Assembly: GCA_051453625.1 (NCBI GenBank)
Contig: JBOZIK010000001.1
Span: 5,674,356-5,726,283 of the forward strand
Direction of reading: 5' to 3'
Length of the DNA stretch: 51,928 bases
Source of the DNA: Welwitschia mirabilis
Lineage: Eukaryota
Below, one piece after another: positions 1-36,929 of the stretch; positions within the stretch are counted from its first letter, which is position 1; each line of letters opens with the position of its first letter. Under the pieces are notes generated by a model. That model ran no database searches and had not been told where the DNA came from. It saw only the letters and a list, made by a program, of their open reading frames with translations. Position numbers and translations under genes: made by a program.

Positions 1-1381
1 GGAAAAAAGTTTTAAATTAATATGTAATACAAGTAATTTTGCAATGGGTGGGGTACCTTGTCAAAAGTATGAAAATGATTTTAATATTATATGTTATCAT
101 AGTAGAACTCTGTCTAGAACTAAAATGAATTATGCTACTATAGAGAAAGAGATGTTAACAATTATCTTTTGCCTTAATATGCTTAGAAATTATCTTTTAG
201 GCTTCCATACAAATGTTTATACTAATCATACTATAATTTAATACCTTATAACTAAGAAATATTTAAGTGCTAGACTGATTAGGTGAATCCTCCTCATGCA
301 AGAATTTCATTTGACCATCATTGATAATGCAAGGAAGTATAATAGTATTACTAATCATTGTTCTCATCTTTTTTCTCCTCTTAATTATGTTATGATTGAT
401 GATTCTTTTTCAAATGAATAATGTTTTATTATATCGTTTAATTATCCCCCTTCTTGGTATGCTAATATTGTTAATTACCTTGTTACCATGAAAACACCAT
501 AACATTGGACTTATAACCAAATAAAATCCTTTATACATAGAATATATGACCATGAATGACAGAACCACATCTTTATCATAGGTGTAGAGACCAAATTATA
601 TGAAAATGTATGTCTGATTGGGAAAAATATAATATCCTTTATCTTTGTAACGGTGATGTTTGTCAAGCTCATTTTAGTGGACAGAAAATAACTATAAAAG
701 TTTTCCATTTTTCTTTCTATTGGCTGATTCTTTTTCAGGATTCTTTTAAATTTACTAGAAGGTGTGATCCTTATCAATTTTATTATAGCCTTATTCATGC
801 TTAAAAGATGTCTTTTAAATCTATTCTTGAATGTAATCCTTCTAATTATTGGGGAATTCATTTTATAGGTCCTATTCACCTACCTTCTAATGATAAGAAT
901 TATATTCTAGTGGCTATAGATTATGTTAGTAAATGAATTAAAGATATTCCTACTTTTTTGAATGATGCCTAAACTATTTGTACTTTTCTTAAAAATTATA
1001 TTTTCCAATGATTTGGTTTTCTAAGGATTATTATTAGTGACCAAGGAACTCATTTTATAAATTAACCTTTTAGCAAACTTCTTTTATCCATTGGAATAGA
1101 ACATAGAGTAGCTTGTGATTATCATCCCCAAACTAATGATCAAGCTAAAAATTCAAATAGAAAAATTAAGAAAATGTTATAAAAACTTGTCTCTATTAAT
1201 AAGAAATCTTAGGCTTCTAACCTTAATGATGTTCTTTAGGCTTACTATACTACTTGACATAATTCTCTTAGTTTTTCACCTTATAAACTTATGTACAGAA
1301 ACATTTTTGTTTTACCTATTAATATGTGCTATAACTATTATCATACTTCTTATTAACTTAATCTTGTAGACCTTTATGAGA
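1..1381 (+). pseudogene. Ty3/gypsy pol fragment (RNase H + integrase N-terminal and core regions)
   Basis: NYATIEKEMLTIIF, ARLIR*ILLMQEF, HFSGQK...FYW, WGIHFIGP, YILVAIDYVSK*, ISDQGTHF, YHPQTNDQ resemble Athila-type RNaseH/INT motifs; many stops. Confidence 0.92.
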
Positions 1382-1680
1382 TACTATAAGAAAAAATAAG
1401 CTTTTAAGCCATTTTTTAAAATAAACACCTTAATTATAGGTCTTTTAAGGCATTCATCTTAATCAACACCTTCAATAAAAACAATAATAATATTATTAAG
1501 GTATTTTTTTTAAATAAATGCCTAAAAACCCATTACCAAACTATTTTAAGATATTTAAAAAAAAACTCCTTAAAAATTTTGAGCTTTTAAGGTGCTTATG
1601 AAAAAAAAAAGATCTTAAAAATATGAGCTTTTAAGGCGTTTAATGGAACAAACACCATAATAGCTAGGTTTAAAACCTTT
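1382..1680. repeat. CACTA TIR plus subterminal repeats (TTTTAAGGC/GCCTTAAAA-like motif in both orientations); also at 9135-9490, 18200-18435, 19160-19471
   Basis: Repeated ttttaaggcatt / aaacaccttaaaa variants cluster at all four CACTA ends. Confidence 0.85.
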
Positions 1681-2530
1681 TTTACATGTCCTTTTAAAAA
1701 AATAATATCATCAAAATAGGAGGTTTTTTCTTACAAAAATGCACTGCACAACTCTATGCATCGAGAATCGACCCTCCATGTTGTAATTTTGTGCATCAAA
1801 AGAACTACTTTCTTCCTTTTACATTTTCAACCAGTGGTAGCAGATTCTATCTTAAGCATCTTTAATAATAACTTGTCAAGGGGTGATTTGTTTTCTACAA
1901 TGAGAGTTAAGGTACCATTTTTTCACTATGTACTTTGTTTTTTAATTGTTTTTCATCTTTTCTTCTTTGCATTGAAAATACTTACACTACAAAAACAAAT
2001 CTCACGATCTTCACATTTATAATTATTGTTTAAGGATTCGATCTATACCAATTGTGTTTATCACTCATGTTTTTCTTGATGTTTGAAATTGGAAATCTTT
2101 TACTTTCTTATTTATTTTGATGTGTGTTTTATGATAATTTTTATTTTTTACTTGTCCTTATTTGGTTACTTATTTGATGCAGTGGAAGAAAGAGCATATG
2201 AAATGCTTGAAAAGGAAGAAAAGAAAGATGAGATAAAGATCCAAGTAATATAGGTTCTGTTTTCTTGAATATATGAAAAGAGACATTATCGATAGCATAA
2301 TCATGACATAATGCTATAGGTTAGGGTTTTCATATTATTTAATTCTATTTATCATTGAGTTCAAATTTAAGTTTCATACGGTATCTGATCATTGACAGCT
2401 TATAAGAAAAAATCAACATAGGAAAATGTCCTATTTCAAAGGTTTAGGTCTTCTTTTTAAGCTGATTAACCTTATGCTTTCTATTGATTTTATTATAAAT
2501 TAATTAAATAGTTACTGTGATACTAATGTA

Positions 2531-2720
2531 GATCGGTTGGAACCACTAACCGTTGTTTGACAGGGATTTTGAACCGGCAGAGTGAGCAATGTATGTGCGG
2601 GTGACCATATAGTTCCCCGATACTGCCCTTACCTGGCAACTCGCCACTGGGTGTCATATGTACTTATTCTCCGGATGCGTAGTGATGCTGGATTGTTACG
2701 ACGGACGTAAATGGAGTACC
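2531..2720. other. Compositionally foreign CpG-rich segment of unknown identity
   Basis: Hand count: 95/190 G+C and 11 CpG, against strongly AT-rich, CpG-poor flanks. Confidence 0.8.
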
Positions 2721-3829
2721 TCTTTTTAATTTATCTTTTATAAGCCCTTATTTTACTTCAAAGAAGAAGGGCCAAGAAATTTGTTCTTAACATATGTTGA
2801 AAACTATATTTACAAAATACTTTTGCAAATCCTAGGAAACTTTAAAAATTATTAATTTTAATACTAGTTCAACATCTTTTGTAAATTTACTTAAAGAATT
2901 AGTTTCTTACACTTTAGAATGCTTAGCATAATCAATTACCTTAGAGTTCAAAAAAAGGGTAATGCTTGGCACAACCATTTACCTCCTTAAAGTTCAAAAA
3001 GGGATTGAGTATCTTCATGTTTCTTTTTCTTTTCTATTGCCTTTTTGCTAAATAAAATCTTCCTTTAATTAAAGTTTGAAACCTTTTTTAGGCCATAGCA
3101 TCCATCATAGCATCCACAGTGGAAGACTATAATGCAATGAGGCTTAGGTACTTTGATTATTTACATGTTAGGATTTGAGAGGCTTCAAAAGGAACAAACT
3201 TACTAGTTGACTTCTATTAGAATGACTTTTTAATGTTTTGCATTATTGTAGGTGTTATTTATGTGCATTTACATTTTCTATTATTTATTTTCAAGATAGC
3301 ATTTCATATGGTCATATTTTTTCATAATCCATCTAGAACTCTTTTGAAGGCCTGATCTATTCTTTGTGAGTTTGTGCATGACATTCAAATCAATATTTTT
3401 ATTGATTTTGCTATAAGATTTAAAGTGGTTAGCTATGAATCTAAGGATATAGATGTTTTATAAGATTTAGGAATGTCTGGAAAATTTCATTTTATGATAG
3501 TAATTTTTCTATTCTTGATAGTATCATGAAAAAATTATGTTCCCATTATGTTAAAGGTATAAAACTACTATCCATAGGACAGGTAGTAAACTAGTAACCA
3601 TTGAAGTTAGTATTAGTAATTTGAGGTGTTAAAGAAGACATGTTCTAAAAATCAGTTAGCATATCTTCATTATAAAAGAAAAATGTAAGCTAAAAAAAAA
3701 GGGGGTACATAGATTTTATGTGGTAGATCTTGTTAATGTAGAGTAAAATATTATAGAAAACATTTCACAAGACTAGAGTTTTAACAAAAAAATATGAGAA
3801 CTGTGTATAATTAATTCCTTCTAAAGCAA

Positions 3830-4490
3830 AGATAGGTGTCCATCTTAATAATGTTAGAAAAAACTAAGGTTATTAAACCTATGATTCTAATTCCCAAGTT
3901 AATTGACAAAATCAAATACATGTAGGGCATTCACAATATTTAATGCTTTTAATCATCATAGCTAAGTAAAGAACTATATTAGAAAGGCTTCATATTACAT
4001 TAAAACTATTAGTTTATTTTAGCTAGAATCACCCAAGATAATAGCATAATTGATGCATATGCTTCCTTATCTAGTTTATATAGGAATATCCTAAATGTTG
4101 TTTAGATTGTGAGATTTATCTCATTTTCTCACTTAAGGAGGTCTTTGTAGTAGGCTTTATGTCCATATTCAAAATGCATTAAAGTGGAAGAGTAGAACTT
4201 ATGAATATGTTTTATTTAATTACAAAAGGATGATCATAGTGATAGGCTATGGACTTACATTGGGAGACATGTAATTAGATTGCAAAGTGTATATCATAAC
4301 ATGTCGATTTGGAGACAATACTATATTTTAATATGATGACACTAAGAATATGATAACTTTTGTACCTATCTTCTGGTATCAATCTATGACCTTTTAGCTT
4401 ACAAATGATGAAGATAAACATAGTAATGTGCCATCTCATTAGGAGTTGTATACATGATAACCTACACCTATGATACATAAACATCGGGTT
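3830..4490 (+). mobile_element. Possible highly decayed Tat-type gypsy remnant (archaeal-type RNase H / integrase fragments)
   Basis: Weak motifs ARITQDNSIIDAYASLSS and DRLWTY only. Confidence 0.25.
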
Positions 4491-4703
4491 AGGCATTCCA
4501 TAAGACGTAGAACTATAATAAGTTATTTATGTCTTTGCATTACATCTTGTTTTTAAATGCTAGAGAACTAGATGTTTCCAAAAGTTAGTCTATCCTAATA
4601 ATATAAAATGACAAGATATACTATCTTATGAAGTGAAACAATTACCTTAGAATTAGATATGGGACTAACTGATACTTGCCCTAGTTAAGAAAGGATTTTT
4701 AAT

Positions 4704-6050
4704 ATGCTTGGAGTTATCAATAAGTTCTTCTTTCTTCTCTTCTTCTTACTTTCTTCTGAATAGATGAAGAGAGAAGACTGTAAACTCTATCTCTTTACAT
4801 GTGCTAATCTTTAGAGAGGTATTCACCATTATTTCACAGATACCTTCCTAAATTTATCCTTTAGGATTCTTTGGAATAGGCTATGTCTACAACCTTATCA
4901 ATAAGTCTAATGATTTTGAAGATAATCTCATTGGTTGATCTTTTTGCATTATTAAGAAAGAGAGATTTTCTCAAAATTTCCCAAAGAAAAGATCAAAGAA
5001 AATGTACTTGTAGAGAACATAGATGAAGATCTTGTAGTATCAGTGTGCAACAACTCCTTTGCAAGTCAATCATTGGAGAGATCTCTAGGTAACTATAAGA
5101 GGGCTATAATTATATAGTGAAAGGCTATGGAAATGATGATAGAGAGATCTCTTAAAAGCCTTCTAATTAATGGTTTCAATTATGATAATGTTGTGATCTC
5201 TCAATAGGGTTTGTACATATCCATTTTGGAGTTGCTTATTCTCTTTTCATCAATGGTAAAGAAATATTTATTCTAATGGAAACCATAAAAGAATACGTAA
5301 TTTCTTCAACTAATAGAGGTTGTAAGGGCATCCATATGTTTGGAGGTATTACCACTATCTTACTAAGTGATAGCATGAACAAATATTTAGTTGTAAGATT
5401 TCCACTAGTGAAACATGCCTCTGAACTTAAATTCTTCCTTGAGAATCCAAAAACATGAAGAACATTGCCATTGTGCTTAATAGATTAGTTTGTTAGCATT
5501 TTAGAAGTGTTGTATTTGTCAATCAATCTTATTATAAATGGGTAATTAGATAAAACTTTTTAGGAATTATTAAGTTATTCATTTAAGGTTTAATTCATAG
5601 GTTTTAAATACTAATTTGTGTTATTTGTTTTGAATTGAATAGCACAAGAAGGTTTGCAAGGATGGAGGCATAAAATGTTGCATTATAGGGAGGAACCTTT
5701 ACATGAGGTTCTGCTAAACCACAAGAAATGCTATGGAAATGAACATGATATCCAAGAACACTCTAAATGTGTTGAAGTTTCTAAAAGATATCCTTCAAAA
5801 CATGGATGTCATTAGTGCTTTGATAAACTATTGTGTAAACAGGAAAGCCATGAAAGTCAATTGTATAAAGAGGTATGGAAAATCCATGATAGTAAAGGTA
5901 GGGATATGAGGAGATGTGATGAAGAAGGTTCTTAACAAAAGTATTTTAATTTAAAGTTGAACACTCTAACATGATAAAAATCCTTTCGTTTGGGAGGTGA
6001 TAATGTGCTTACTTTTGATTTCATCAATGTAAATTTTATTAGCTACAAGG
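4704..6050 (+). pseudogene. HMGR: 3-hydroxy-3-methylglutaryl-CoA reductase pseudogene, 3'-truncated, intron 5484-5642
   Basis: Colinear motifs YFLLNR*REK..SLHV..IYPLGFFGI (membrane domain), DEDLVVSV..SLERSLGNYKRA, STNRGCKGI..GG, ELKFFLENP, RFAR..GRNLYMRF..NAMEMNMISK, MDVIS..NYC..YGKS, LGGDNV; stops and frameshifts. Confidence 0.92.
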
Positions 6051-6054
6051 AGGC

Positions 6055-6530
6055 AATGATATGCAACAAAGGCTCTTTTTTCAACCCCAATGATTGGTGG
6101 TCCTACAATGAGTTTGTTATCATATCTTTAACTAAATGTCTCCCTCTCTAATACTAAAGCTAAACACTTTACCTTCATAAAGGTGGCCAAAGAAATGATA
6201 TGGCTATAACATTTGCTTGGTGGATTTGAATAAGCATAAGTAGGAGATTTTGTGTGAAAGTTAGAGTGCTATATCTTTCTTGAAAATGTAGTATTACACA
6301 CATCCTTATATAAAACACATTAGGAAAGAGTTTGCTAAAAGTCCAAATATTGTAGATGTATTAAGAAAGACTCTAATAATTGAGGAGAATTCTCTCTATA
6401 AGAGGAGGGCTAGTTTGGATTTTACTTGATGATTAAGGCATGGGTTGCAGTGTAACTCTTGATGCTATGAAGCTAGAGCTTAATTTTAAGGATGAAAGAA
6501 TTTGTCTTCAAGTGGAAGAATATTGTTAAG
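6055..6530 (+). mobile_element. Ty1/copia RNase H remnant with PPT-like end, truncating HMGR
   Basis: VSLSNTKAK..VAKEMIWL..ILCES*SAI..NIVDVLRK resembles copia ALSTTEAEY..KEAIWL..CDSQSAI..ADMLTK; caagtggaagaatattgt at ~6510. Confidence 0.7.
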
Positions 6531-9500
6531 TGTAGCCATATTTATTTAATCCCTTGCTATGCTTTTTCCCTAGTTAAACCCATAAAGTTACATCCCTTAA
6601 TGATTTTGCTTGATTAATCCTTACATTTCTATAATATTCTAATTCCTTAAGTTGTTTTTAATGTTAATCTATTCTTTTGAAGTTTTTATATCTTTATGAA
6701 GTTTTGTGATATTGATTTCTATATTATTAAAATATCCATATCTAGTTTTAAAGATTCTCTATATGTTTTAAGATCCTAGCATTTAAGTGTTTGTGATATC
6801 ATTATTCATTTACATCATTAATCATTTGATTTTTAGGCCNNNNNNNNNNNNNNNNNNNNNNNNNNNNNNNNNNNNNNNNNNNNNNNNNNNNNNNNNAGAA
6901 ATGGTATCTAAAAGAATACTATTTTGATACTTTTTGGCTTTCCTTAAGTGATGAATAGATGATGACTTTATATATTCACTGATATGCTCTTATGCTTTTC
7001 TTTTTTTGACTAGCTAATGAGTGATGTTGTTACTAATTCTTTAATGTCATTTTCTTTTGAAGTTCTTGGGTCTACCTGTATAGCTAATATGATGTAAAGG
7101 TAGCCATAATCAAATAGCCATGCTAAGGCTAAAGCAGTATCCATTAGTTTATTTTTCTCTTCCTGAGATCAAGTGTAAGGCTTGTTTGTTGAGCAATTCT
7201 TCATGTCTTTGATCAATTTATTTTTGTGTTCTTATTTTTCATCCTTAAATGTTGGTCTAAAGTTATTAATAAACATGCTTACACATACATATATGTGTAT
7301 TTTCTTTTACTGAAGAAGATATAGGACAAGCTATTTGAAGAATGAACTACTTGACTTATCAAACCTTGAGTAATAATAAAGATCATACCTATGGAATGTT
7401 ATTATAAAAGGAAATTCTGCAACAAAACAAAAGATAATGCAAGCAATAAAACTAGAAAAAGCATACAAGAAGACTAAAGAATTTTAGTTACTTTTGAGCA
7501 TACATACTTGAGAAAGTAGTACAAAACTTTTATTATTCAAATTTAAGCTTTAAATAATACAACCACAAGAAAAAACAATATGAATGTGATCTCTAGTCAC
7601 ATATTTGGATTTAATGATAAAAAAGGGTAACTTTTGTGCCTATCTTTGATTTTGAGTTAAATCCTAACTATCTCCTATGAAATGATGATTGAACGCAATT
7701 TGAATATCACTAATAAGATAGTAATTCCCATTATTTATTCTCAATGAATTTGTAACTTGTCTTATTATTTTACAATTCCATTATGTGATATCAATCTCCT
7801 TTAATTCATACTTTATCCGGTTATTTCACAATTACATTACATTATTTGAATTTCCCTAAGTTTTTACTTCAGAGATTCTTGATGTAGTCTAAGGTTAGGT
7901 AATGAAAAACATTGCATCTTTCAAAGATCACCTTGGATGTTGTCATTATTATTTGCAATAGAAAACAACATGCCTCAGCATGATGATGAAAATATTCTGG
8001 TAATCATGCTTTAGATCAAGAGCTTGACTAGACTCCTTCTGCTAGGACATTCTATCTTGATGGTTTTAGGTATTGTTAGATTATTAATCCACCTTTCATA
8101 CCTAGAGCTCACGTGTTATATTTAAGTGTTAAGATTATTTTAAGACTTAGTTCTTGGGATCCTTGTTATATTATCATATTGAATGTTAATTATTAGCATA
8201 TGTATTAAAAGAAGGTATTATGTAAGATTATGAAGTGCAAGCTTGCACATGATAAAATACAAGAAACAAATATAATAAAAGAAAATAAATATAACAGAAC
8301 AACACCTAATAAGACATATGTAATAGTGATATGCTTAAGGGGCTAGAAGAGTAGCTAAGTTGGAATACAAAAAGAGTAGTATTATGAAAATACAAACGTA
8401 ATAAGCTTTTAGGGTTAGTGAGCTATGAAAATGATATTTAAATCCTTGTTTTAGGTTTAAGGCTATGGAACTCATTTTTGAGGTTCTCTACATTATAAAA
8501 TGAATGGAGCATAAAGTGAGATAAACAATTGTGATTAAGCTTAGCTCTAAAGATGCAATCATTATTCTCTACTCACTATGTTTAGCCAAGCTTTACTTTA
8601 AGTCCCAGCATGTGACATTCAATTCCATAGGCCTTACTACTAGTTCATCTTTTGGTTTTAATAGTTATCCTTCTATGTCCATGGCTCTAGCTTTTGGCAG
8701 CTCTGACTCTCAACTTATCTATGACATCTATGCATACAGTTCTATAAGGATGAAAAGGATGAACAAAAATCACTCTTTATGCATAGAAGGTGAGAAATGC
8801 AATACAATCAAAATAAGAGGGATGTAACAAAGTGGATTAGATGAAATAAGCTTACTGAGTATGGGTGTTAAGCATGGTTGTATCATTCACATATAACTTT
8901 TATTCATAAGCTTTCATAAATTCAAGTGTGCATATCATTTGTGCAGGATCAATGCTCAAGAATTTAACTTAGAGGTATTATCTTTAGTGGAACTTATCCA
9001 TTTCCTTGAACATCAATGCTAACACAACATTACTTATAAAAATGTTGCATTAGAAGATATCTATTTTAGTCATGATCTCTCTTCCTTTACTCAATTCTCT
9101 TTAATTTTACTACTTTTACTTTGTGTCTACAAATCACTATAAGAAATATAGGCTAAAATTCCTTAAAGTATTTTAAGGCATTTCTTCACAAAACACCTTC
9201 AAAATCATTTCCTTAAAATCCTAGAAGTTTTTAGGCCATTTCTAAGGCATTTGAATAAAAACACCTTAAAATGTCTTTTAACACGTTTTTGAAAAAAAAT
9301 GCCACAAAAGACTTTTGGGGAATTTATTTAATAAAACATCTCATAAGGATTTTTAAGGTAGTATATTAATTAAGCACCTCAAAAGGCCAAATCCTTTTTG
9401 AGGTGTTTTACAAAACAAATTTCTAAAAACCTTTAACTTTTGGGGAAAACAATTTATTACACAATGGTAAAAAATGTTGCCTTTAGACTTAATAATTTGT

Positions 9501-11249
9501 AAGCATAATGGTTGCACTGAATTATGGGAATGGTTTTTTTTAGGTAAGCAAAAGCCAACATTTCTAGTACCTATGGTATAGTTGAGTGATATATTCAAGT
9601 AAAAGTTCCCGCTAAAGCCTTCTAATACTTTCAAACTCATTCTCAGTTTATTAAAACAGGTTTAAATCTTTTTGAAATTATCATAGAATATGAACACTAC
9701 TATCTTCCTTGGGTTTAAAAAAACAATTATAATTAATTATAATTAAGTAGTTAAATTTAAGATTTAGCAAGGTCTCATATCCATCATTCATAATTAATGC
9801 ATATAAACATGGCAACAAAATTAAGAGTCATCAAAAAATTTTAAAATGAGCATGAAGTTTATAATAAAGATATAGACTTTTAATTAAATAAGTAGATGGC
9901 ATCAAAACCCATAAATCATCACCTAAAACATCAGTAAACCTAGTAGAAATAAAGATAGCTTACCTGATAAAGATGTAAAATCTTGGAAAAATATTAGAAC
10001 TTTGAGACATTTCTACACCTTTAGAAAGATAGTTACCCATGAAACTAGACAACTAAATGCACTTGGAGATACCCATGAGNNNNNNNNNNNNNNNNNNNNN
10101 NNNNNNNNNNNNNNNNNNNNNNNNNNNNNNNNNNNNNNNNNNNNNNNNNNNNNNNNNNNNNNNNNNNNNNNNNNNNNNNNNNNNNNNNNNNNNNNNNNNN
10201 NNNNNNNNNNNNNNNNNNNNNNNNNNNNNNNNNNNNNNNNNNNNNNNNNNNNNNNNNNNNNNNNNNNNNNNNNNNNNNNNNNNNNNNNNNNNNNNNNNNN
10301 NNNNNNNNNNNNNNNNNNNNNNNNNNNNNNNNNNNNNNNNNNNNNNNNNNNNNNNNNNNNNNNNNNNNNNNNNNNNNNNNNNNNNNNNNNNNNNNNNNNN
10401 NNNNNNNNNNNNNNNNNNNNNNNNNNNNNNNNNNNNNNNNNNNNNNNNNNNNNNNNNNNNNNNNNNNNNNNNNNNNNNNNNNNNNNNNNNNNNNNNNNNN
10501 NNNNNNNNNNNNNNNNNNNNNNNNNNNNNNNNNNNNNNNNNNNNNNNNNNNNNNNNNNNNNNNNNNNNNNNNNNNNNNNNNNNNNNNNNNNNNNNNNNNN
10601 NNNNNNNNNNNNNNNNNNNNNNNNNNNNNNNNNNNNNNNNNNNNNNNNNNNNNNNNNNNNNNNNNNNNNNNNNNNNNNNNNNNNNNNNNNNNNNNNNNNN
10701 NNNNNNNNNNNNNNNNNNNNNNNNNNNNNNNNNNNNNNNNNNNNNNNNNNNNNNNNNNNNNNNNNNNNNNNNNNNNNNNNNNNNNNNNNNNNNNNNNNNN
10801 NNNNNNNNNNNNNNNNNNNNNNNNNNNNNNNNNNNNNNNNNNNNNNNNNNNNNNNNNNNNNNNNNNNNNNNNNNNNNNNNNNNNNNNNNNNNNNNNNNNN
10901 NNNNNNNNNNNNNNNNNNNNNNNNNNNNNNNNNNNNNNNNNNNNNNNNNNNNNNNNNNNNNNNNNNNNNNNNNNNNNNNTACAATAGATATCCAATATGG
11001 TTCTGCTATAAGCCAAAAATGCTAAAGATTAGTCAGCATATTATTTGAAAGTATACCATGATGAAAGAATGATCCATCACTAACTCATGATATTACTTGT
11101 GATCTATCATTAAGTTAGATTTATAGAAAATAGTATTCACAATACTAATGAAGATAAACATATGAGGAAGATGTGGCATCACTATGCACCCCCCACATAC
11201 AGCAATGATGAATAAGGAAATCAGTCTTTAGACATGTTAAGGAATTTCC

Positions 11250-12460
11250 ATGTTTAAATTTTTTTACTTATTATTAGTTGAGTTGAGGCTTAGGCATTTC
11301 AAAATGATGATAGTTGTTTAATTTTAGGGTACTTGAAATTTTCCTAGAGAATGATATGAACTCATTGATGCAAAATGATGCTTAGGAATTATGTAATTTT
11401 TCTATGTTTCAATGGTAGAAAGGCAATGAGAAACATATTTCTCTACTATAGATTATAGAGGAAGCAAATAATAGAAACTTGCTACAAAGATAGAATGGTA
11501 GTTAAGAGGGCTTTGCATAGTAGAATGCTTTTGATATCATCAACATCATTTTGCTAGTGGTAAAGGTCATCTGTGGACATGTCATACTTTCAGCTGTAAC
11601 ACTTCTTCATCTAGAGCAATTGGACATTAAAACTGTAGGTTCTACCTAGTGGTTGTAATAAAGAATTTTATATCCAACATGTGCATAAAAGTAAATCTGA
11701 CTTACATTATAGACTTATGTAGTCTTTATTTCTTGAAATAAAATCATTGTGAATGCTATCATTAACACATCCTCTTTACATGGAGTTCCATTACAAATGA
11801 TTTAAAGAGGATAGATTTGTTTCTATGTAGAGTATGTTTCATCTAATTTTATCATCTTATTACTTGATGGAGATGATTTACTTAATGGCATCAATGTGAT
11901 AAGGGCTAGCAAGTTAAAGGAATGAATATAAGATTTGTAATGAAGGTTTATGAAATAGTTAAGAAATCTTCAGGACCTCTAAGAAAGATGAAAAAGAACC
12001 AAAAGTTATGGCTTTAACAAGAACAATATTTGGATGAGATACTAAAACAATTTATCATGTCCAAAGATAAACTAATAAGTTCAACTTTGACTTTGTGCAT
12101 GAAGTTTTTTAAGCATTGCTTCTCAACTATGATTAATAATTGGAGTATACAAAGCTAAATCCTTGTACATTAGTTTTTAGAAGCCTAATGAATGTGGAGG
12201 TTTTTACTAAGTTAGAGGGCCTATGAAGTGAGTGCTAATTTGTTTCATAAATAACTGTGGTTTTACACATTGACATTTTATTATTAGTATGTGCAGATGT
12301 TAGTGAGATGATTTTAATAGAATGTAACATGTATGAATGTGAACATGATGGGTGATTTAGATGGAAGGTAATGTTCTAATTATTTGTTTTGATGTAACTA
12401 CTTTGATATCTACATGACATTGTGGTATGATCTTATCTACCACTAAACTTATATTCATTA
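11250..12460 (+). pseudogene. Ty1/copia reverse transcriptase to RNase H remnant
   Basis: YKDRMVVK, LEQLDIKT, IILLLDGDDLL (YVDD equivalent), LWL*QEQYLDEILKQF, MMGDLDGR, LSTT. Confidence 0.8.
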
Positions 12461-12959
12461 TGATTTTATGAGGGTTCACTCATTTCAACGTTGAGGGTTT
12501 ACTAATTCTCATTCCTCCACTCTATTTCTTGCAATTTCATGTAGAACATCATGAATCTCAAATGCATCATAATGAGATAATCCATACGATATGAGTGTCT
12601 TACTCTGTACCAGATCATCACAACTACTTCCACTACAATCTCAACCTTCCTATTATCATAACAAACAAAGACACAATAAATATTTATAAAATTTTCTTTA
12701 GATTTATTTTCTATAGGCTCATGTGCAAATGCCTTCTTATAAGTATAGTCATCCATGAGGGTGTGCATTCTTTTATGTTAACTATCAATTATTGCAAATG
12801 ATATCATCTAAGAATGTAATTGATTCTATGAGCTTCCTTCCTTTTGATTTTGCTATTATTATTACTATTATTGATGATGCCTTTACTATTACTAGTATTG
12901 CTACTAATGTTGTTATCACTAAATCTTATTATTGGTAGTAATTCTACTATTTATATGAA

Positions 12960-13450
12960 CATTCTTATTACTATTGAAAATGAAAATGAGATTTGAAATG
13001 GGCCAAGGTCTCCTCCTTTCCCTTTGGTGTTGTTATTAGCTACTAAAACCTTTTGCTTCTTTTTTTATTTATCCTTTTAAGGATTTGCCTTTACATTTTT
13101 TTATATAGAATAATAAGAGTTCAAATTCCAAGCTATGTGAGTGATGGAAATCCTCCTTAAAGTTACTTTCAAAGCTTAGAGAAATTTGTATAAAGGAAGG
13201 ATTTGATTATGAACCTAACTTAGTAAAATATGAGTTTATCCCTTATGTCCTTGTTGACTTGCAAAATTATCTTTTTGCTATTGATGAATTAGTTTAAAGG
13301 TTTTGAACCAATGTGTGATCCTTCATAGCTTAATTTTAAATAAACTCATGAATCTGATGTCTTTAAGTTTGTCCAGTGAAACAATGTGCTACTCTTTGAT
13401 AGCAAAGCAATGAATCTAAGAAAACATCCAGTTTAATCAAAAAATTTAGC
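12960..13450 (-). mobile_element. Possible decayed gypsy gag remnant
   Basis: Weak HWFKTL*TNS motif on the minus strand next to a putative LTR. Confidence 0.25.
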
Positions 13451-15130
13451 ATTGCATAGTGCCTATCTTGTTTTATTTTATGGATCTTTCATGTAAAAAC
13501 ACTTATATGATGATTTTCTTTTTGTAAAGAGATCAAATGAATAGTATGGAAAAAATGAAAAGAGAAGCTACTAATTATACACCCAAATGGCGTAGATAGT
13601 AGTTGCAAAAAGGAAATGCATAATAAGAAAAATGGAGAAAGAGCATTTTTTTGATTTAAACAATTTTAATATTGTTTAAGAGTTGTTGCTAATCATTTTC
13701 AATATTGTCATTTGATGCATTTCATTAATGTTATTGGGAATCTATTTTTAGAATAACTCATAGGATTGTCTACAATTTTCAAGTGTTTTCTGAATACAAT
13801 CACCATGATTGAAGAGTCAACGATGTCGAAGATTTCAAATTCTTATGCTTTCTTCTTTTAGCTAAAGATAGTTCTAGAAGGAATGCTTTTATCCTTTGGA
13901 CTTGTATGTAGGAAAGCTTTATAGAATGCTGAAATGTTTTTTCTTTTAAGGGTTATAATTCTTTGAATGGATCTCTAGCATAATCGTCTCTGTAACTTCA
14001 TCGACTTATGTTTATTACCTAAGTAATTAAAACCAAATTCAAGAAATTCAAACCCATAGTAATGATGATTTAACCAAAAGAAAAATAATAGCCCATGTCT
14101 CTTGTATTATCTTTCCAATTTTTAGTCGACGGTAAACTCATTTTTATTTATTTTTTATTAAAATCCTATCAAAAAATTTGAATGTTTCTTTCACGAGTAT
14201 AACATAATCTTGTACTACCTATGTTTCTCATCTTCAAGCCTTTGTTATAGATTTTGAATAAATGATATATTATATGCACATTAAAAATCATTGATTAATG
14301 ATGTTAAAGGCCTCACATTTTTGTTTACTAGTAACTGCAGGTTGTTCACTACATTAGAGTGACCCAAGAAGAAAGAAAAATGTAGCTCCCTCATTAACTA
14401 AATCATTATTAACACTCAATTAGCAAATCTCATTCCTTATAAATCATCATTATTAGCACTCAATCAGCAAGTCCCCTTTATCATGAATCATAATAAATGC
14501 ATAGTAATGAAAATAACATTTGCATCAATATATTCTCTTTCTATGCTTTTAATGAAAATAACAACAAATGTACTAATAAATAAGTATTATCATGTAATGG
14601 ATAGAATCTTAAATTTCTTCTTCTATTATATTTATTTATGCCAAGTATTTCTTATGTCTTCAAGAAGAAAAATCATCATTCCATGTATCATAAAATTTCA
14701 AAGTAAAGTTCAAGTACTGCAAGCCATACACTTATGAATAAATATAATATGTCTCTCATCAAAATAACAATTGAAATAATGACTATTTATGAGTTTAAGT
14801 AATTAACTCCAATAGCCTAGGAGATACAATAAATCAGAGGATTTTTCCACCATTTTAGATCCAACAATCCATCATGAACTCATGCCATCTCAACAATTAG
14901 ACACCAGATTTTCCACCTGTCACAAAAAGATATGGAATGAAAACTGTGAAAATTTCACAGCTGCTATTATGGCCTAGGCAAAAATAAGTAGTTTTATAAG
15001 ATTCTTCAAGACTTGAGATAGAAATGAAATAGTTCAAGATTTATAATAAATCCAAGACATACATAGATAATGAGCTTATGATTATAAATGAGAATATCAA
15101 ATATATATATAATCTCAATCATCATTAACT

Positions 15131-15575
15131 TTACTACCTTGTTCGGCAATTTGTGAAGCTCACTGCCTCATTCGGCGACCTGTGATTCTCATATAATATT
15201 TAACTTCACTACCTCATTCAATGATCTATGAAGCCCACTACCTCATTCAACGATCTTTATATATATAAAATCTTAATCATCATTAACTTCACTGCCTTAT
15301 TCGGTGATCCATGAAGCTCACTGCCTCATTTGGTGATCTGTGGTAATATAATATCCTCACTGCCTCATTCAGTGATTTGTGGGATTCTCTTGTCACTACC
15401 TCATTTGACGATCTATGAAGTACACTACCTCATTNNNNNNNNNNNNNNNNNNNNNNNNNNNNNNNNNNNNNNNNNNNNNNNNNNNNNNNNNNNNNNNNNN
15501 NNNNNNNNNNNNNNNNNNNNNNNNNNNNNNNNNNGGCGATCTGTGAAGTCCACTGCCTCATTCGGCGATCTGTGG
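15131..15575. repeat. 29-bp tandem repeat (CACTGCCTCATTCGGCGATCTGTGAAGCT consensus), partly in an N gap
   Basis: About a dozen degenerate copies, some separated by short AT spacers. Confidence 0.9.
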
Positions 15576-15911
15576 AAAATCCATAACCATAAGCTTAACA
15601 AGATGATATCATAAATCTAAGAGAAGATTAATCACGACATAACACCTTGACAAACTTTAAAGGGATTACAGGATGAGTATGATGGATTTAATCATAAGCT
15701 TTCATCTCATACAAAAGATAATTTCAAGGTATTAAGGAATGGTACATAAAGATAAAATATGATTCAAATTAGGGTTTCTCTCATTTAAGCAACATAACCA
15801 TCTTTCAGGAAATTCACATGGATCAATCTCAATAAACAAACAAATATGAGAGGATCATCAATAATATACAAGAAAATAAAACCATACAATGCATGATAAT
15901 TTTGATATATA

Positions 15912-16085
15912 TTGCATAAGAAAGAACCAATAACAAAGCACAAAAGTAAAGAACCATATGATAAAGGTAACAATATCAATACAAAATGAATAAGAAAGGA
16001 TCAACAAGGAAGCACAAAAGTATAGAATCATACAAAAATGCATAAGAAAGGACCATTAAGAAAGAAAAAAGTACAGAATCATATC
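15912..16085. repeat. Three degenerate copies of an A-rich ~50-75-bp unit (ataagaaaggaccaataa..aagcacaaaagta.agaaccata)
   Basis: Visible direct repeats. Confidence 0.6.
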
Positions 16086-19000
16086 AAGTTTTAAGAAAAA
16101 CTCAAGATCTTTGCAAGTCTTCAAATCTTTTCAAGGCTCCAAGACTTGATAGCAGAAGATTATTCAAAAACAAAAGTAAGAAAAAAGGAAGAGAAGAGTC
16201 CTACTTATAATTAAGATTTGATGAAATGTGAAGAGTTACAAGAATATGAAGATAAAATGAAAGGTGTCAAAGATTCCATGCATGTGAAGATAAAACATCA
16301 AGAATAGGGCAGTTAAGAGAGGGGTTACATAATGTCTTATAAATGATTATCTGGCCATTAGATGCTTTTAATAATATAATTAAGATAATGTTTTACATTT
16401 AATAATGAGAAAAAGAAATAAATAACATGTCTTTATAGTATACATTCAATTCAGCATTTACATTCAATTGCATAAGTAAATAAAAGATATCATTTCCACC
16501 ATAAGAGGATATAAAAATTGGGTACAAATATTTACATAATACGGTATTCATATTGTAATTTAATAAAATCACATTTCACGAATCATATCATTTATACCAA
16601 TTGAGGGTTTCAAGTAAATTAAAATTTTTCAAATATTTCATTAAACATAAACTTACAAATTTTATAAGAAATGTAAAAATATGGATGTGACATATACAAA
16701 CTTTGTTTAAGCATTCATTATTTAGGTTTAAAAATAAGATTAAAGATGAATAAAAAAAGACATCGAAATGCTACATTAACTAAAATACCAGAGGCCTTTT
16801 GCCGCTTTATTTTTTGAATCTCCATGAAATAAATAATAGAGGCTTAGACACATTATACTATTTGTAAATAAGATAATAGTTAAATTAAAATAGTAGAAAT
16901 TTAAATATTTTATTTAAAAAACCTAAATATTTGTACAATACAGATACATACTAAATAGTGTACATTTTAAAAAAGAATCCAAAATCACTTTCTTGAAAAT
17001 AGCCTATGTTCTTACCTCATCAAATGTTCTTATTTTCTCATATGATTGTGTTTCACTTGTAAGCAATCTAACAATTCAAATGATAATCTAAAAAATAAAT
17101 TATAAAGTACAAAAATCTAATAATCTGAATCACAGAATCTAGCATACTGGCTAAATCTAAAGGAATAGTAAGGGAAAAGGTAAAAAACCCTAAATATAGG
17201 AGCCCAAGCATAGTTTTCCATTTAATTGCACAGGCATTAAATAGAAATCTCATGGAAATTCAAATTCATCCTAACATGCTATTACCTAAGCAATAGATTT
17301 TAGTGTAGCACAGAAAAGAAAGTTTTNNNNNNNNNNNNNNNNNNNAACCCTAGATTCCAGACAAAACTTTACAATGATCAGAAATTTAATCTAAGGATGA
17401 GATTATTTGATAGATGTACATAACGATCAGAATATCTTCACCATATGGATGGCAGAAGAAACCTAGGAAATGAGAACATAAATGAAGTATATAACTGTGA
17501 AAGAACATAATGCTAGTTTTCTAACTTATAAAATCATGAAACCCTATAATTTGAGCATTGCTAAGTCATATAACCATCTCATATCANNNNNNNNNNNNNN
17601 NNNNNNNNNNNNNNNNNNNNNNNNNNNNNNNNNNNNNNNNNNNNNNNNNNNNNNNNNNNNNNNNNNNNNNNNNNNNNNNNNNNNNNACCATCTCATATCA
17701 ATAGATAAGAGAGCCATGAAATCCTTCTAAAAGGATTTCAATATTTCCAATGATGGTATAAGAGCTAAAATGCATTGGATTAGGGTTAGCATTTTCTAAA
17801 GAAGTTAGCATTCTAGATGACCTATAATGTCAATTAATTAAAACTTTTACCTGATCGATAAGTTCTACCATTAGGGAGGATCACACCTCTTGTTGAAAAT
17901 CCTTAATCATAAGAAGCAACAAAATGCCATCTAAAAGGGAACAAACCATAGGTGGAAAAGCTGAAGTAATACAAAATAGCTTTGCCTCTATGACAAAGAA
18001 TACAAAACAATTTCTAAATCATGTCTTACAATTCTTATGTGAAATATGTCATTAAAAACCATGGTTTCTAGAAAGTTCAAGATTTTTTCCCACTTATCGA
18101 CTTCTTTAGAATGTCACTTCTTTGAGTTTAGTTTCAAAAATGCACATTTTAATCATTTTTTTTCATAAGAGGGTAGGACTTTTTTATTATTCTTGATAGC
18201 TATTATGGTGTTTGTTTCATTAAACTCCATAAAAGAGGAGTATTTTTTAAGGTTTTTTCAAGTAAAAGCTATTAAAAATATTTTTTAACAGCTTTTAAGG
18301 CATTTATTTTGAAAAACACCTTATAAATATAATTATTCTTTTTCAAGGCATTTACTAAAATGAACACATTAAAAAGGATTATAATTAAGGTGTTTATTTA
18401 AATAAACACCTTAAAAACCTATTTTTCTTATAGTAAATATCTTATCATATAATCAGTTCAGATCAAAACTCACTAGTACTAGAAGGGAAAACTTATAAGC
18501 GCTGAAAATTTACTTCAAGAAGTGTGCTGGTGGGGAGGAGATAAGTAAGGGAGGATCAACCATGTGGAATTAGCATTTGCAATGACTCCTACTCTTGTCA
18601 TCTTAATCTCCATAATTACCAAAGAGTCTAATCTCACATGCCCCAAAGACTATGAATAATACTGTAGAAAGCAACAATGCTAGCAACTTAAATAGAAGAT
18701 ATGCCAAGCCATGGAGTACTAGCATCATGATAAAGGATAGTAATAAAGTGAGAAGAGGGGGGAAAAGGTATTTAATAAACTATTTTTTTATCTTTTTCTA
18801 TGAGTCTGCTATTTAACTAGTTATGTATCTATGATGATAGTTAATTTTAAGGATGTATGTTTACATTTCTAGAAATCATGCATTCTGTAATATAATATTT
18901 TTATTAGATTCATTTCCTTTATATTATTTTACTAGATAAATCCTCTTGATATACATATTCATTGTTATTAAAAGGGAACTTGCCTAAATAAAGCATAAAA

Positions 19001-19471
19001 TAAATGTAATATATCATGGTGGACTATCTCAAAAATAAGTGTTAGAAGTAGGATAACAACAAATTTACATGCCACAATAAAACATTTGATTCATGAGAAA
19101 ATATTATGCAAGACAATTACATGAGATAACAATATCAATTAATCACAAAATATTATGTAAAAAATGCCTCATAATTGGTTTGAGGCATTTATTTTGTAAA
19201 ATGCATTGAAAGCATTTTAAGGAATTTATAATGAATTTTAAGGCATTTACACTATAAAATACATTAAAATTCTTTTAAGGAATTTCATAAACAAATGCCT
19301 CAAATATTTCTATAAGGAAGTTTTATTAAAATTCCTTAGAATGTCTTAAAAGCATGCAACTTTTAAGGTTAGGCTTTTTAAGTGTTTTTCTAACAAAACA
19401 CCTTAAAAGAGTTTAAGGTATTTCTTAAGTCCTTTTAAGGTGTGCCTTAAAAGCCTATATTTCTAATAGTA

Positions 19472-19790
19472 AGAATATTAAACATAAATTAGTCCAATTA
19501 GATCACCTTAATAAAAAATGTACTCATTCTGTACATTATCAATTAATCCACAAAGCCTAAGCTAAGTTTAAACATGATAGGAAGCTTCTTCACAAAAAGT
19601 TTGAACTTGGTCAACTTATCCTTTTATACAATACTAGAGTACATCTTTTAAATAACAAGTTGACCTCTAAATGATTAAGCTCTTATCTTATAGGAAGAGT
19701 ACATTCTAATGGCTCTATTGAGATTTTTGACTTAGAGACTAAGGATATTCAGAAAGTTAATGGATAAGGGTTAAAACTATATAAAAAATC
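19472..19790 (+). pseudogene. Integrase C-terminal part of A1
   Basis: NIKHKLVQLDHLNKKCTH..AKFKHDRKLLHKKFELGQL..NGSIEI..KVNG matches ORF 50427-50930(-). Confidence 0.9.
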
Positions 19791-35029: not shown

Positions 35030-36829
35030 TATGTTATCCAATAAAAAGAGAAATCTTCAAAACCCATTTGACCTACCCTCCAGTGATGACATAGAGTTAA
35101 AAAACTTGAATGCCTATCCTACCATTTTTAGAGAACTTAATAAAGACCCATTCCAACACATAGCTAAGATTGAACAAAATGAAAAAAATAAAACTTTAGA
35201 TAGAACCTATATAATAATCTTTCCATTTACCTTTAAATGAAAATTGAAAAATTAGCCTAAAACCATTACACATACAAGTCTTAAGTCATGGAATCAAGTA
35301 TAAGAAGTCTGTACTAAATGATTCATGAATGAGACAGTCATGAGGATGAGAAGAAAGGAAGTAACAAATTTTCAATAATACCCTTATGAATATTATTCTT
35401 CAACATATGAAAGATTCTTAATAGTTGTATCATTCAACTCAATGAATGAGTTTTATAAACAAGAACTTATTGATCACTTCTATAGTGGATTAAATAGTCA
35501 AACAAAACAAATGGTAGATTTTTCATGTGGTGGATATTTACTCAATTTAATCTTAAATGATGCTTGGAACTTATTAGAAGACCTTGTAAAAAGAAGTTAA
35601 AATTTTTTAAAAACTACATATAAAGACACTAGAACTATAGGTGAAATGCTTAAAGACTCTAAAAAATTCAACATGAGGAAGAACAACCAAAGGTTGACAT
35701 CCTACTTAGTAATCTTACTAGTATATTGGATAGTGGCACAAAAGCTTTAACTAATGCAAAATTGCTAAATCAACTGAATCATTGTGAAATATGTGATGAA
35801 AACTATCACTCTACTAAGGAATGCCCCATTTTACCAACTTGTAGAGAGGCCATATTCAACAAATTTTATGCATTTAATCAAAGGCCAAATGACTTTAAAG
35901 GTAACCAATAAGATCCATCATGAAATAATAAACCTTAAACATCTTTCAATCCCTTATTTAATAATAAATTTAGAAATCACAACTCTTAGCCACTATTGTA
36001 TATCATTTAAATTAAGATTATAACATGTGAAATAAATCAGATCTATAAAAATCACATGATATAACTATTAAAAGATAATATGCTACAATGCTAAGAAATG
36101 AATCTTGTATCATTTTAATTGTTTGATTTTTCATAGATCTAATGTATTTCACATGTTATACTCTTAATTTAAAGATTCAAGGGTAGCTACTATTGTATTG
36201 TTTTGGAAAGAAATAAGAAAATCAAGAAATACTTAATAGGCATAGGAACAAATGTAAACATTATACCTTTGCATATTTATAGAAAGTTTAGATTAGAAGA
36301 AAGGATTGAACCTATGAGAATAGTATTGGAATTTGATGATTCAATAATTAAGAAACTAATAGGAATAAATGAAGTCTTAGTTATTCAAATTTAGGAAGCT
36401 TTCAACTATATATATATGGTCATCATTGAGGTCGAACATAATGTAGGAAGAGCCTTTTGTGCAACAGCCCATTCTGTCATTGGTACTTGTATGGGGATGA
36501 TGGAATGTCATGTAGGTAATAAAATATTTAGTATTAAAGTATTTATTGCACTAAAAAATACATGAAAAGAAAATTTAATATAGACGAAAAAGTTAAGTCA
36601 TCCATGTTAGTTCAAAATTGTCCTTTAGAAGAAAGGCTTCTTTCATTACATGACTTAACTTTATTTAATTATGAAGAGGAATCATCTACTATTCTTAAAT
36701 CTTTAAACTCCTCCAATCCTTTCAATGTCAATCAAAACCTTTTAAACAACTCTTCTAATGATAATTTTCAATAGGACTTTTAACATAGACTTAATCATGA
36801 TATCCAACATGTAAGATCCATTGAAAAAC
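35030..36829 (+). pseudogene. gag (CX2CX4HX4C knuckle CEICDENYHSTKEC) and aspartic protease remnant, copy 1
   Basis: DPFQHI..IFPFT, HFYSGL..MVDFSCGG, zinc knuckle ~35783-35824, LIGIGTNVNIIP, VGRAFCAT. Confidence 0.85.
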
Positions 36830-36929
36830 NNNNNNNNNNNNNNNNNNNNNNNNNNNNNNNNNNNNNNNNNNNNNNNNNNNNNNNNNNNNNNNNNNNNNNN
36901 NNNNNNNNNNNNNNNNNNNNNNNNNNNNN

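Follow-up and report, generated by a model that had tools for sequence, protein, structure and literature searches.

The block at positions 1382-19471 of the window, by which the whole 51,928-base stretch of Welwitschia mirabilis DNA analysed is meant, is one precise insertion into a Ty3/gypsy integrase gene. It is probably an ancient, dead, non-autonomous CACTA (En/Spm-type) Pack transposon that carries a piece of the gene for HMG-CoA reductase (HMGR), the rate-limiting enzyme of the mevalonate pathway. As such, it is a clear but ordinary case of gene capture of a known type, in which the HMGR piece is now a functionless passenger.

Insertion site

The left flank (1-1381, plus strand) is a decayed Ty3/gypsy pol region, in which RNase H is followed by an integrase core at approximately 862-1128 that is broken at 1381. 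Pfam scores were 82 bits for RT_RNaseH and 38.3 bits for rve (cutoff 32.6), and read depth over this flank is very high. The same integrase gene resumes in the right flank with its C-terminal part (19475-19909, plus strand), which extends to an N run. This flank was identified from the joints and from very high depth; its integrase-C-terminus-like translation was read by eye and is without a Pfam hit.

The block is flanked by an AGA target-site duplication (TSD; 1379-1381 and 19472-19474), which was read from the sequence and is reflected in an empty-site joint from 1378 to 19472. This joint skips 18,093 bases and retains a single AGA, whose three letters fit either side. It was present in 8, 6 and 1 contigs of X1, X5 and X7, respectively, and in 37 raw reads of X14. 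Since other gypsy integrase copies lack the block, its contents came with the element or afterwards. The gene-bearing unit has thus transposed as a Pack-TYPE element does: it has ends and a duplication, and its site is unoccupied elsewhere.

Element ends and nested element

The outer element (plus strand) is 18,090 bp long as assembled and 8,786 bp long after subtraction of a nested element of 9,301 bp; all of these are assembly lengths, and five N runs fall inside. The first-pass annotation had recognized terminal inverted repeats (TIRs) and an AGA TSD enclosing 18 kb (~8.8 kb without the inner element), in agreement with the four oriented ends, the duplications and the empty-site joint. Its description of the element as giant was overstated, as only 8.8 kb remain without the nested element.

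With at most one mismatch, the 14-mer YACTAYWAGAAAAA occurs four times in the 51,928-base window: at 1382 and 9135 on the plus strand and at 18435 and 19471 on the minus strand (chance mean 1.08; four occurrences were reached in 1 of 100 shuffles). A CACTA start is found only at 9135, where the end reads CACTATAAGAAATA; the ends at 1382, 18435 and 19471 start with TACTA and read TACTAT(A/T)AGAAA. Positions 2-14 of the ends fit the En/Spm-type terminus, and the first base differs at both ends of the outer element. The latter is bounded by TACTA...TAGTA, as against the strict CACTA...TAGTG motif of the CACTA superfamily. The 3-bp target-site duplication of that superfamily is present at both elements (AGA/AGA outer, AAT/AAT inner). 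Short subterminal motifs in both orientations, a further mark of the superfamily, are also present: the 200-bp bins with at least two TTTAAGG/CCTTAAA motifs lie at the four end regions, apart from one additional bin (13001-13200). The left terminus (TACTATAAGAAAAA...) and its subterminal region with these motifs occupy 1382-1666. The outer right arm occupies 18439-19471 and includes the subterminal region, in which a 58-bp tandem repeat spans 19179-19290, as well as the terminus ...TATTTCTAATAGTA (both features plus strand).

The nested CACTA-type element (CACTATAAGAAATA... to ...TTTTTCTTATAGTA) lies at 9135-18435 on the plus strand, is non-coding and was delimited by its termini, the AAT duplication (9132-9134 and 18436-18438) and depth. 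A very high-copy repeat is located inside it at approximately 14609-17264. A joint from 19580 to 9136 in X5 marks an independent insertion, into a different gypsy copy, of an element with this left end type. The joint from 9134 to 18439, which would represent an outer sister without the nested element, was not found among the 15 joints listed, beyond which there were 2,243 more.

HMGR pseudogene

A tblastn search with a 598-aa plant HMGR (P0002) aligned aa 66-130, 184-241, 244-329 and 352-443 to 4759-5945, with E-values of 4e-30, 6e-20 and 4e-8. Pfam HMG-CoA_red (PF00368) scored above its cutoff of 27 bits twice (46.3 and 33.8 bits; model positions 33-118 and 157-217 of 368), so that the HMGR homology reported by the first-pass annotation is confirmed. 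By local alignment the match continues as far as aa 57 at 4732 (z 5.9); a further extension, up to aa 46 at 4707, is weak. The pseudogene (4707-5945) thus covers aa 46-443 of 598, about 66% of the protein, at 38-49% identity, with at least six in-frame stop codons and at least five frame changes. The last ~155 residues (aa 444-598), the C-terminal catalytic part, are absent. No complete catalytic-domain ORF of a functional plant HMGR is present, given the stops, the frameshifts and this missing part. The word near-complete, used earlier for this copy, was therefore too generous. The extent of 4704-6050 given with it, said to span most of the catalytic domain, is likewise somewhat generous, with nothing significant past 5945. 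Local alignments of HMGR past 5945 or upstream of 4707 were no better than shuffles (z 0.2-1.9), and a collinear continuation to approximately 6043 that had been seen by eye was without support from local alignment. No second HMGR match was found in the window by blastn of both outer arms, which gave only the inverted match of the 1382 end with the 18435 end, or by tblastn.

The exon-1 part (4707-5483, aa 46-342) comprises both membrane helices, the linker, which is shortened, and the start of the catalytic domain, and contains stops and frame changes. It is followed by a retained intron 1 of 159 nt (5484-5642, ATTAGT...AATAG, phase 2) and by the exon-2 part (5643-5945, aa 343-443), which includes the DAMGMNM region and after which homology ends; all three lie on the plus strand. 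The intron is located where the exon-1-only gene calls P0001 and P0004 end (...FNK; aa 342 of P0002), and the earlier argument from a retained intron to capture at the DNA level stands. Plant HMGR genes are described with "three introns, four exons". In a search for shorter relatives of P0002 residues 343-598, the 120 hits listed of 2,819 were mostly long, cDNA-like fragments in which exon ends are not visible.

Other coding content

HMG-CoA_red was the only Pfam domain above its curated cutoff in 1382-19471. No transposase domain was found by Pfam in the 119 ORFs of 38-69 aa in this interval or in the ORFs of at least 70 aa. Six-frame read-through Pfam scans of 1700-4761, 5900-9134, 9135-10079, 10980-15434 and 15535-17326 gave no transposase or other captured gene; 17346-18435 (both strands) and the minus strand of 18436-19471 were covered by Pfam on ORFs of at least 38 aa only. 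The ORF and read-through scans thus bear out the earlier statement that no transposase is recognizable. In keeping with a Pack-TYPE element, the internal sequence derives from a host protein-coding gene and no transposase domain was found. For the 100-aa ORFs at 1720-2019 and 8525-8824 all ESM Atlas matches were below 0.9, with low recognition. A Ty1/copia-like motif seen by eye near 11.8-12.2 kb had no Pfam support. A GC-rich island at 2530-2715 gave no tRNA, Rfam, Pfam or plasmid match.

Sibling copies

Diverged copies of the HMGR-bearing arm are present as contigs over 4455-4972, 4609-5055, 4993-5318, 5483-5852, 5499-6278 and 5553-5973. They differ from the window at 15-20 of every 100 letters (80-85% identity) and are collinear across both HMGR edges; the contigs stop short of the termini and the flanking loci. 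Because they cross both HMGR junctions, these junctions are ancestral to the family. At position 5157, within HMGR, 9 contigs of X1 and 11 contigs of X5 have G, where the window has A. The summed contig depth in X1 is 21-65 over 1993-8632, excluding the bin 5977-6640 (131), and single own-locus contigs have depths of about 4-5. Judged from read depth, the left arm as a whole may exist in roughly 4-15 copies; the summed contig depth is not a true copy number. The HMGR fragment looks like the passenger of a small amplified family. The siblings presumably carry the same ends as the outer element; they could instead be copies of another HMGR-carrying repeat.

Proposed history and alternatives

The proposal of the first-pass annotation, that a CACTA-type non-autonomous element mobilized a genomic piece of HMGR, is supported by the precise insertion, the intron and the collinear siblings. 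We infer that a CACTA transposase was the mobilizer; the order of events and the mechanism of capture given here are likewise reconstructions. About 1.24 kb of a host HMGR gene would have been picked up at the DNA level, from about codon 46 in exon 1 through intron 1 to about codon 443 in exon 2. A transposase supplied in trans would then have acted on the TACTA/CACTA ends and the subterminal repeats, giving rise to a handful of copies, and the present copy would have inserted into the Ty3/gypsy integrase gene with the 3-bp AGA duplication. Afterwards another element with ends of this type would have entered the outer element, generating the AAT duplication, as would other repeats, and final decay, mostly by transitions, would have led to about 28-30% G+C.

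How the HMGR piece entered the element may be read differently from its borders. It is enclosed by an 18-nt inverted repeat with 16 of 18 positions matching (left arm 4689-4706, right arm 5970-5987, both plus strand), the arms of which lie 0-25 nt from the limits of HMGR homology. Spotted post hoc, this repeat had its equal at the same spacing in 1 of 1500 random window pairs (p about 7e-4), and it could have been left by a separate carrier or by a discrete filler event. HMGR would then have entered before amplification as a discrete block of 1.26 kb, either as break-repair filler at a short palindrome of the element or within a small nested carrier bounded by inverted ends of 18 nt. We regard this as rather unlikely; it would be a variant of capture and not a denial of it, and the ancestral junctions crossed by the sibling contigs are in its favor. 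However, no target duplication was found beside the arms (left flank CTAGTTAA, right flank GTTTGGGA), and the complementarity stops at the arms without outward extension. The left arm may itself be N-terminal coding sequence of HMGR: it lies at a suitable distance from an upstream ATG at 4572 for a position in the poorly conserved N-terminal part, with a similarity that is not significant. The pseudogene-like decay and the collinear, uninterrupted exon-2 block (aa 343-443) would match the arrival of a processed retrocopy in the element. This origin is nevertheless very improbable, as the 159-nt intron, which has AG at its 3' end and agrees in phase, lies at the inferred exon 1/2 junction and argues against it, the edges have neither a poly(A) tract nor a duplication of their own, and the fragment begins and stops within coding sequence. 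That no capture took place, and that a resident HMGR pseudogene just happens to be flanked by solo CACTA ends unrelated to each other, has nothing in its favor except the decayed ends; with the whole of 1382-19471 missing to the base in other gypsy integrase copies, and one AGA left there, it can hardly be entertained.

The pairing of the four ends also allows more than one reading. By similarity, the end at 1382 belongs with that at 18435, and by duplication with that at 19471. The regions 1382-1666 and 18435-18197 are inverted collinear copies (73% over ~230 bp, and 92% over another stretch of 39 nt) with a local score of 212, as compared with 88-137 for the other five end pairs, among them 117 for the 1382 end against its own partner at 19471. 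Accordingly, 1382-18435 might be a long-TIR element and the next 1,033 bp to 19471 the right-hand part of an earlier host element, the ends at 1382 and 19471 having jumped together. The end at 9135 would then be that of a small nested element that has lost its right end or has it concealed in the 900-N gap at 10080-10979. Mobilization of two neighboring elements by their outer ends is a published model (PMC6379663 and PMC8903248). This composite origin is nonetheless judged improbable. The AAT/AAT match would be due to chance, at about 0.05 as estimated from base composition, and X1 depth, although coarse with 664-bp bins, is high in the bins of 9135 (1252) and 18435 (2655) and low in the 19471 subterminal bin (134), which pairs 9135 with 18435. 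More doubtful still is the proposal that the locus records how capture and end exchange took place in a natural Pack-CACTA family, with a break at a palindrome filled from the HMGR gene and with end types reciprocally mismatched between the outer and inner elements. The match of the 1382 end to the 18435 end would be expected if new elements pair ends of different neighboring or nested copies, and such pairing was proposed as a model from Arabidopsis epigenetic lines. The preferred reading remains a Pack element at 1382-19471 that was later entered by the element at 9135-18435.

Comparison with known elements and significance

The soybean Tgm-Express and morning-glory Tpn1-family elements are CACTA elements of several kb whose captured fragments retain introns; they are young, sometimes active, and known from mutable alleles. 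The Welwitschia element is, in contrast, an old relic, and the likeness is one of description. Rice Pack-MULEs represent gene-fragment transduplication by a non-autonomous DNA transposon with long TIRs and 9-bp duplications; transduplication is the common feature, whereas the duplication here is 3 bp.

The Arabidopsis Pack-CACTA elements (Catoni et al. 2019, PMC6379663) are likewise non-autonomous, with CACTA-type ends, a 3-bp duplication, host exons and introns inside, and small families. The Welwitschia element differs from them in its much greater size (8.8 kb without the nested element) and its far more advanced decay; T replaces C as the first base of three of its four ends, it contains a single recognizable gene piece of 1.24 kb, and its mobility is deduced from the empty site and the siblings. 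Soybean and morning glory are cited there for gene capture by CACTA elements, and rice Pack-MULEs are mentioned as well. Plant Pack-TYPE elements as presented by Gisby and Catoni (2022, PMC8903248) are similar in being TIR elements of several superfamilies that bear gene fragments. In the model given there, neighboring elements are mobilized as a single unit and internal ends are kept in a tandem left-right-left-right order, whereas the order here is left, left, right, right, with duplications that match a nested pair. The cotton pseudogenes GaHMGR1 and GhHMGR1A (PMC6017885) are also non-functional plant HMGR copies, but they are full-length duplicated genes with a 10-bp deletion and not transposon passengers.

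Among the papers listed by a literature search, none was on the capture of HMGR by a transposon. The locus adds a well-bounded CACTA capture at the DNA level, with an unusually long fragment, a retained intron and a site that is provably empty in paralogous copies, and is a natural test case for capture models. Young copies could have been a source of antisense RNAs or small RNAs directed at the HMGR of the host; the present copy, with 38-49% residual protein identity, is almost certainly no longer able to do so. Its main value is for annotation: this is not an HMGR gene, and the locus and its siblings should be excluded from gene-family counts.

Insertion into a Ty3/gypsy retroelement

On the plus strand, the left flank of the CACTA-type outer element at 1382-19471 carries decayed coding sequence of a Ty3/gypsy element, with an RNase H at 82 bits followed by an integrase core at 38.3 bits (cutoff 32.6). 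After position 19474 the gypsy frame runs on with sequence that by eye resembles an integrase C-terminus and was not scored by Pfam. Positions 1-19909 of the window were compared at 80% likeness with four public sequencing runs under two organism labels, three as contig sets (X1, X5 and X7) and one as raw reads (X14). Flank depth reached tens of thousands in the contigs and approximately 900-1,370 per orientation in the raw reads, so the gypsy retroelement is very abundant. In other gypsy copies, position 1378 is joined to 19472, with 18,093 bases skipped and three letters fitting either side; this joint was present in 8 contigs of X1, 6 of X5, 1 of X7 and 37 raw reads of X14, and the near variants 1379 to 19474 and 1379 to 19478 also occur. 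The joint is an empty site with a single AGA. The whole of 1382-19471 therefore came as one insertion or joined it later, which bears out the first-pass annotation of an 18-kb interval enclosed by decayed CACTA ends with an AGA target duplication.

The same locus was recovered at about 99% identity in the runs under the second organism label, B (X5 and a further run, X6; share of words 0.58), and the insertion is thus common to two labelled taxa or lines. A 93-nt direct repeat of 97% identity (family D20, 19817-19909 and 20599-20691) lies on either side of a 689-N run at 19910-20598 and may be a gap assembly artefact, or else the gypsy element may truly contain this duplication.

Element ends and target duplications

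Four sites in the window match the 14-mer YACTAYWAGAAAAA with one mismatch or none: 1382 and 9135 on the plus strand, 18435 and 19471 on the minus strand. Dinucleotide shuffles gave a mean of 1.08 such matches, and four were reached in 1 of 100 shuffles; with two mismatches allowed, the 21 matches against 15.9 expected are unremarkable. The alignment of all four ends holds over the first 20 or so bases, the first base being C solely at the 9135 end while the ends at 1382, 18435 and 19471 start with TACTA. TTTAAGG/CCTTAAA motifs are concentrated in the 200-bp bins adjoining the four ends, with one extra bin at 13001-13200. The outer element, 18,090 bp long in the assembly, is flanked by the three-base duplication AGA (1379-1381 and 19472-19474), and a 9,301-bp inner element at 9135-18435 is flanked by AAT (9132-9134 and 18436-18438). 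Ends and duplications are preferably read as a nested pair, the inner element inside the outer one. The outer element without the inner one measures 8,786 bp, in agreement with the approximately 8.8 kb proposed before.

HMG-CoA reductase fragment

The 89-aa ORF at 5189-5455, used as query, returned plant HMG-CoA reductases (HMGR). In tblastn with a 598-aa plant HMGR (P0002), residues 66-130 aligned to 4759-4932 (42% identity), 184-241 to 5022-5195 (38%), 244-329 to 5189-5446 (49%) and 352-443 to 5670-5945 (48%). Local alignment placed the start of homology at residue 57 (position 4732, z 5.9), with a weak further start at residue 46 (position 4707, 7 of 13 identical, z 1.4). The Pfam model HMG-CoA_red exceeded its cutoff on two ORFs, at model positions 33-118 and 157-217 of 368. 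At least six in-frame stops and no fewer than five frame changes interrupt the aligned segments, and the variable linker falls about 70 nt short of its length in P0002. Homology takes in both membrane helices, the linker region and the first 60% or so of the catalytic domain; residues 444-598 were undetectable anywhere in the window by tblastn and local alignment. Since the part covered amounts to only about 66% of the protein, the description of a near-complete gene at 4704-6050 was too strong.

The gene calls P0001 and P0004, made from short contigs, terminate at ...FNK, residue 342 of P0002. An exon-1-only call with its stop in the intron would end there, and residue 342 is accordingly taken as the putative exon 1/2 junction. 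The exon-1 reading of the window, NMKNIAIVLNR (NFDSLAVVFNK in P0004), stops at 5483, and the exon-2 reading, (N)TRRFARMEA against (K)SSRFARLQS, begins at 5643, directly after AATAG; the split codon retains phase 2. The intervening 159 nt start with ATTAGT, the GT at the 5' end of the intron appearing to have decayed to AT. The block corresponding to residues 343-443 is uninterrupted. An intron within the piece identifies the fragment as genomic DNA, as had been proposed from its retention, and this 159-nt interval at the putative junction argues against a processed HMGR copy.

Coding content of the element

Pfam scans covered 38 ORFs of at least 70 aa across the window (a 39th, 5189-5455, was scanned separately) and 119 ORFs of 38-69 aa in 1382-19471. 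Six-frame read-through scans, with stops rendered as X, covered 1700-4761, 5900-9134, 9135-10079, 10980-15434 and 15535-17326; 17346-18435 and, on the minus strand, 18436-19471 were scanned as ORFs only. No transposase was found inside the element by these ORF and read-through scans, in line with the initial reading; HMG-CoA_red alone exceeded its curated cutoff, and the few other Pfam matches were at chance level, all under their cutoffs. Two 100-aa ORFs (1720-2019 and 8525-8824) gave weak Atlas matches alone, below 0.9.

Copies of the left arm

Contigs over the HMGR piece differ from the window by 15-20 letters per 100. As the protein identity is below 50%, real HMGR genes cannot align to the pseudogene at 80% nucleotide identity. 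These sibling contigs cover 4455-4972 (88 differences in 517), 4609-5055, 4993-5318, 5483-5852, 5499-6278 (137 differences in 777) and 5553-5973, and they pass both limits of HMGR homology into the adjoining sequence. Similarly diverged contigs were found elsewhere in the element, at 3735-4603, 6057-6832, 8311-8899 and 18620-19094. Position 5157 is G in 9 contigs of X1 and 11 of X5, against A in the window. Summed contig depth, which does not equal copy number, was 21-65 (X1), 25-69 (X5) and 12-46 (X7) over 1993-8632 with the bin 5977-6640 omitted; single own-locus contigs had a depth of about 3-6. Raw-read depth in X14 over the same arm was 2-12, orientations summed. These depths suggest roughly 4-15 copies of the whole left arm, including the HMGR piece, the HMGR-bearing siblings being known from contig pieces within the arm.

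The bins holding the 9135 and 18435 ends had mean depths of 1,252 and 2,655 (X1). End regions are thus far more abundant than the arm, and the ends are common to a much larger family. In X5, one contig carries a 9135-type end inserted at a different place in another gypsy copy (joint 19580 to 9136), which indicates that this type of end was independently mobile.

The left arm also contains, at 2530-2715, an island of about 190 bp that is rich in GC and CpG (43% G+C at 2582-2781, approximately 28% around it), with read depth above its neighbours; at 2600 and 2677 nearly every other copy departs from the window. It gave no tRNA, Rfam, Pfam or plasmid match and may be another piece, captured or inserted more recently. 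A high-copy repeat begins at 6499, where loose left ends are seen in 631 raw reads of X14, and depth in the bin 5977-6640 exceeds that of the adjacent bins 3-6 times. Within the inner element, 14609-17264 is a very high-copy repeat with depth like that of the gypsy flanks; it includes a block of degenerate direct repeats of 40-85 bp at 15101-15578, and its copies show many internal joints; no protein domain was found in it.

Pairing of the ends

The duplications pair 1382 with 19471 and 9135 with 18435, at odds with pairing by similarity: 1382-1666 is a collinear inverted copy of 18435-18197, at 73% for about 230 bp and then at 92% for 39 nt, and this pair has a local score of 212, the other five pairs scoring 88-137. 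The likeness of these two ends would fit a composite in which a long-TIR element, 1382-18435, moved together with the right end of its former host element, the partner of the 9135 end being lost or hidden in the 900-N gap. It would also accord with the proposal, made in passages of two papers, that Pack-type elements form by re-pairing of the ends of neighbouring elements (PMC6379663, PMC8903248). Such a composite is nevertheless unlikely, and the nested reading is preferred, because the AGA and AAT duplications both match, the empty site proves the pairing through AGA, and the 9135 and 18435 ends both lie in high-depth bins whereas depth is low (134) in the subterminal bin at the 19471 end. 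Under either reading the HMGR piece is inside the unit that jumped.

The piece is itself bracketed by an inverted repeat of 18 nt, complementary at 16 positions, with arms at 4689-4706, directly before the first detectable HMGR homology, and 5970-5987, 25 nt past the last. An equal inverted repeat occurred in 1 of 1,500 random pairs of 60-bp windows with the same spacing in this window. No duplication was found beside the arms, and complementarity stops at the arms without extending outward. The repeat may represent a palindromic site into which HMGR DNA was filled, it may be the two ends of a small carrier, or it may have arisen by chance.

Comparison with known elements

CACTA elements with captured intron-bearing gene fragments occur in soybean and morning glory. 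Pack-CACTA elements have been described in Arabidopsis, and there are also reports of them from maize and other plants (PMC6379663, PMC8903248). The outer element fits this kind, and the core of the Pack-CACTA interpretation is supported, with the HMGR piece within a precisely inserted unit, the intron kept and no transposase found. What sets it apart is which gene piece was captured and how long that piece is, together with the element's size and great age. Among the literature entries listed for HMGR with CACTA, gene fragments or transduplication, none reported that a transposon had captured HMGR. The element is an old relic without present function and a further example of an already known type of gene capture; of its features, only the bracketing inverted repeat and the mismatch of the ends might teach something new.

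Sequence context

The window is very AT-rich, with 23-31% G+C in 2-kb windows free of long N runs. Five of its ten N runs lie within 1382-19471 (6840-6896, 10080-10979 with 900 N, 15435-15534, 17327-17345 and 17587-17686). No tRNA or Rfam family was found in the window. Long ORFs are very scarce; 11 stop-to-stop ORFs of at least 100 aa are present, about one being estimated by chance at this base composition, and most are probably relics of retroelement genes. Long direct repeats of 79-85% identity, about 7.8 kb apart, are accompanied by further repeats spaced 1.3-1.8 kb (families D1-D11; 32904-34161 and 40686-41937, and also 35433-38583 and 43712-45202) and are probably LTRs or tandem retroelement copies. 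On the minus strand, a 175-aa ORF and a weak match to rve, the integrase core (17.9 bits, under cutoff), at 50430-51616 suggest that the right end of the window holds a further relic of a retroelement.
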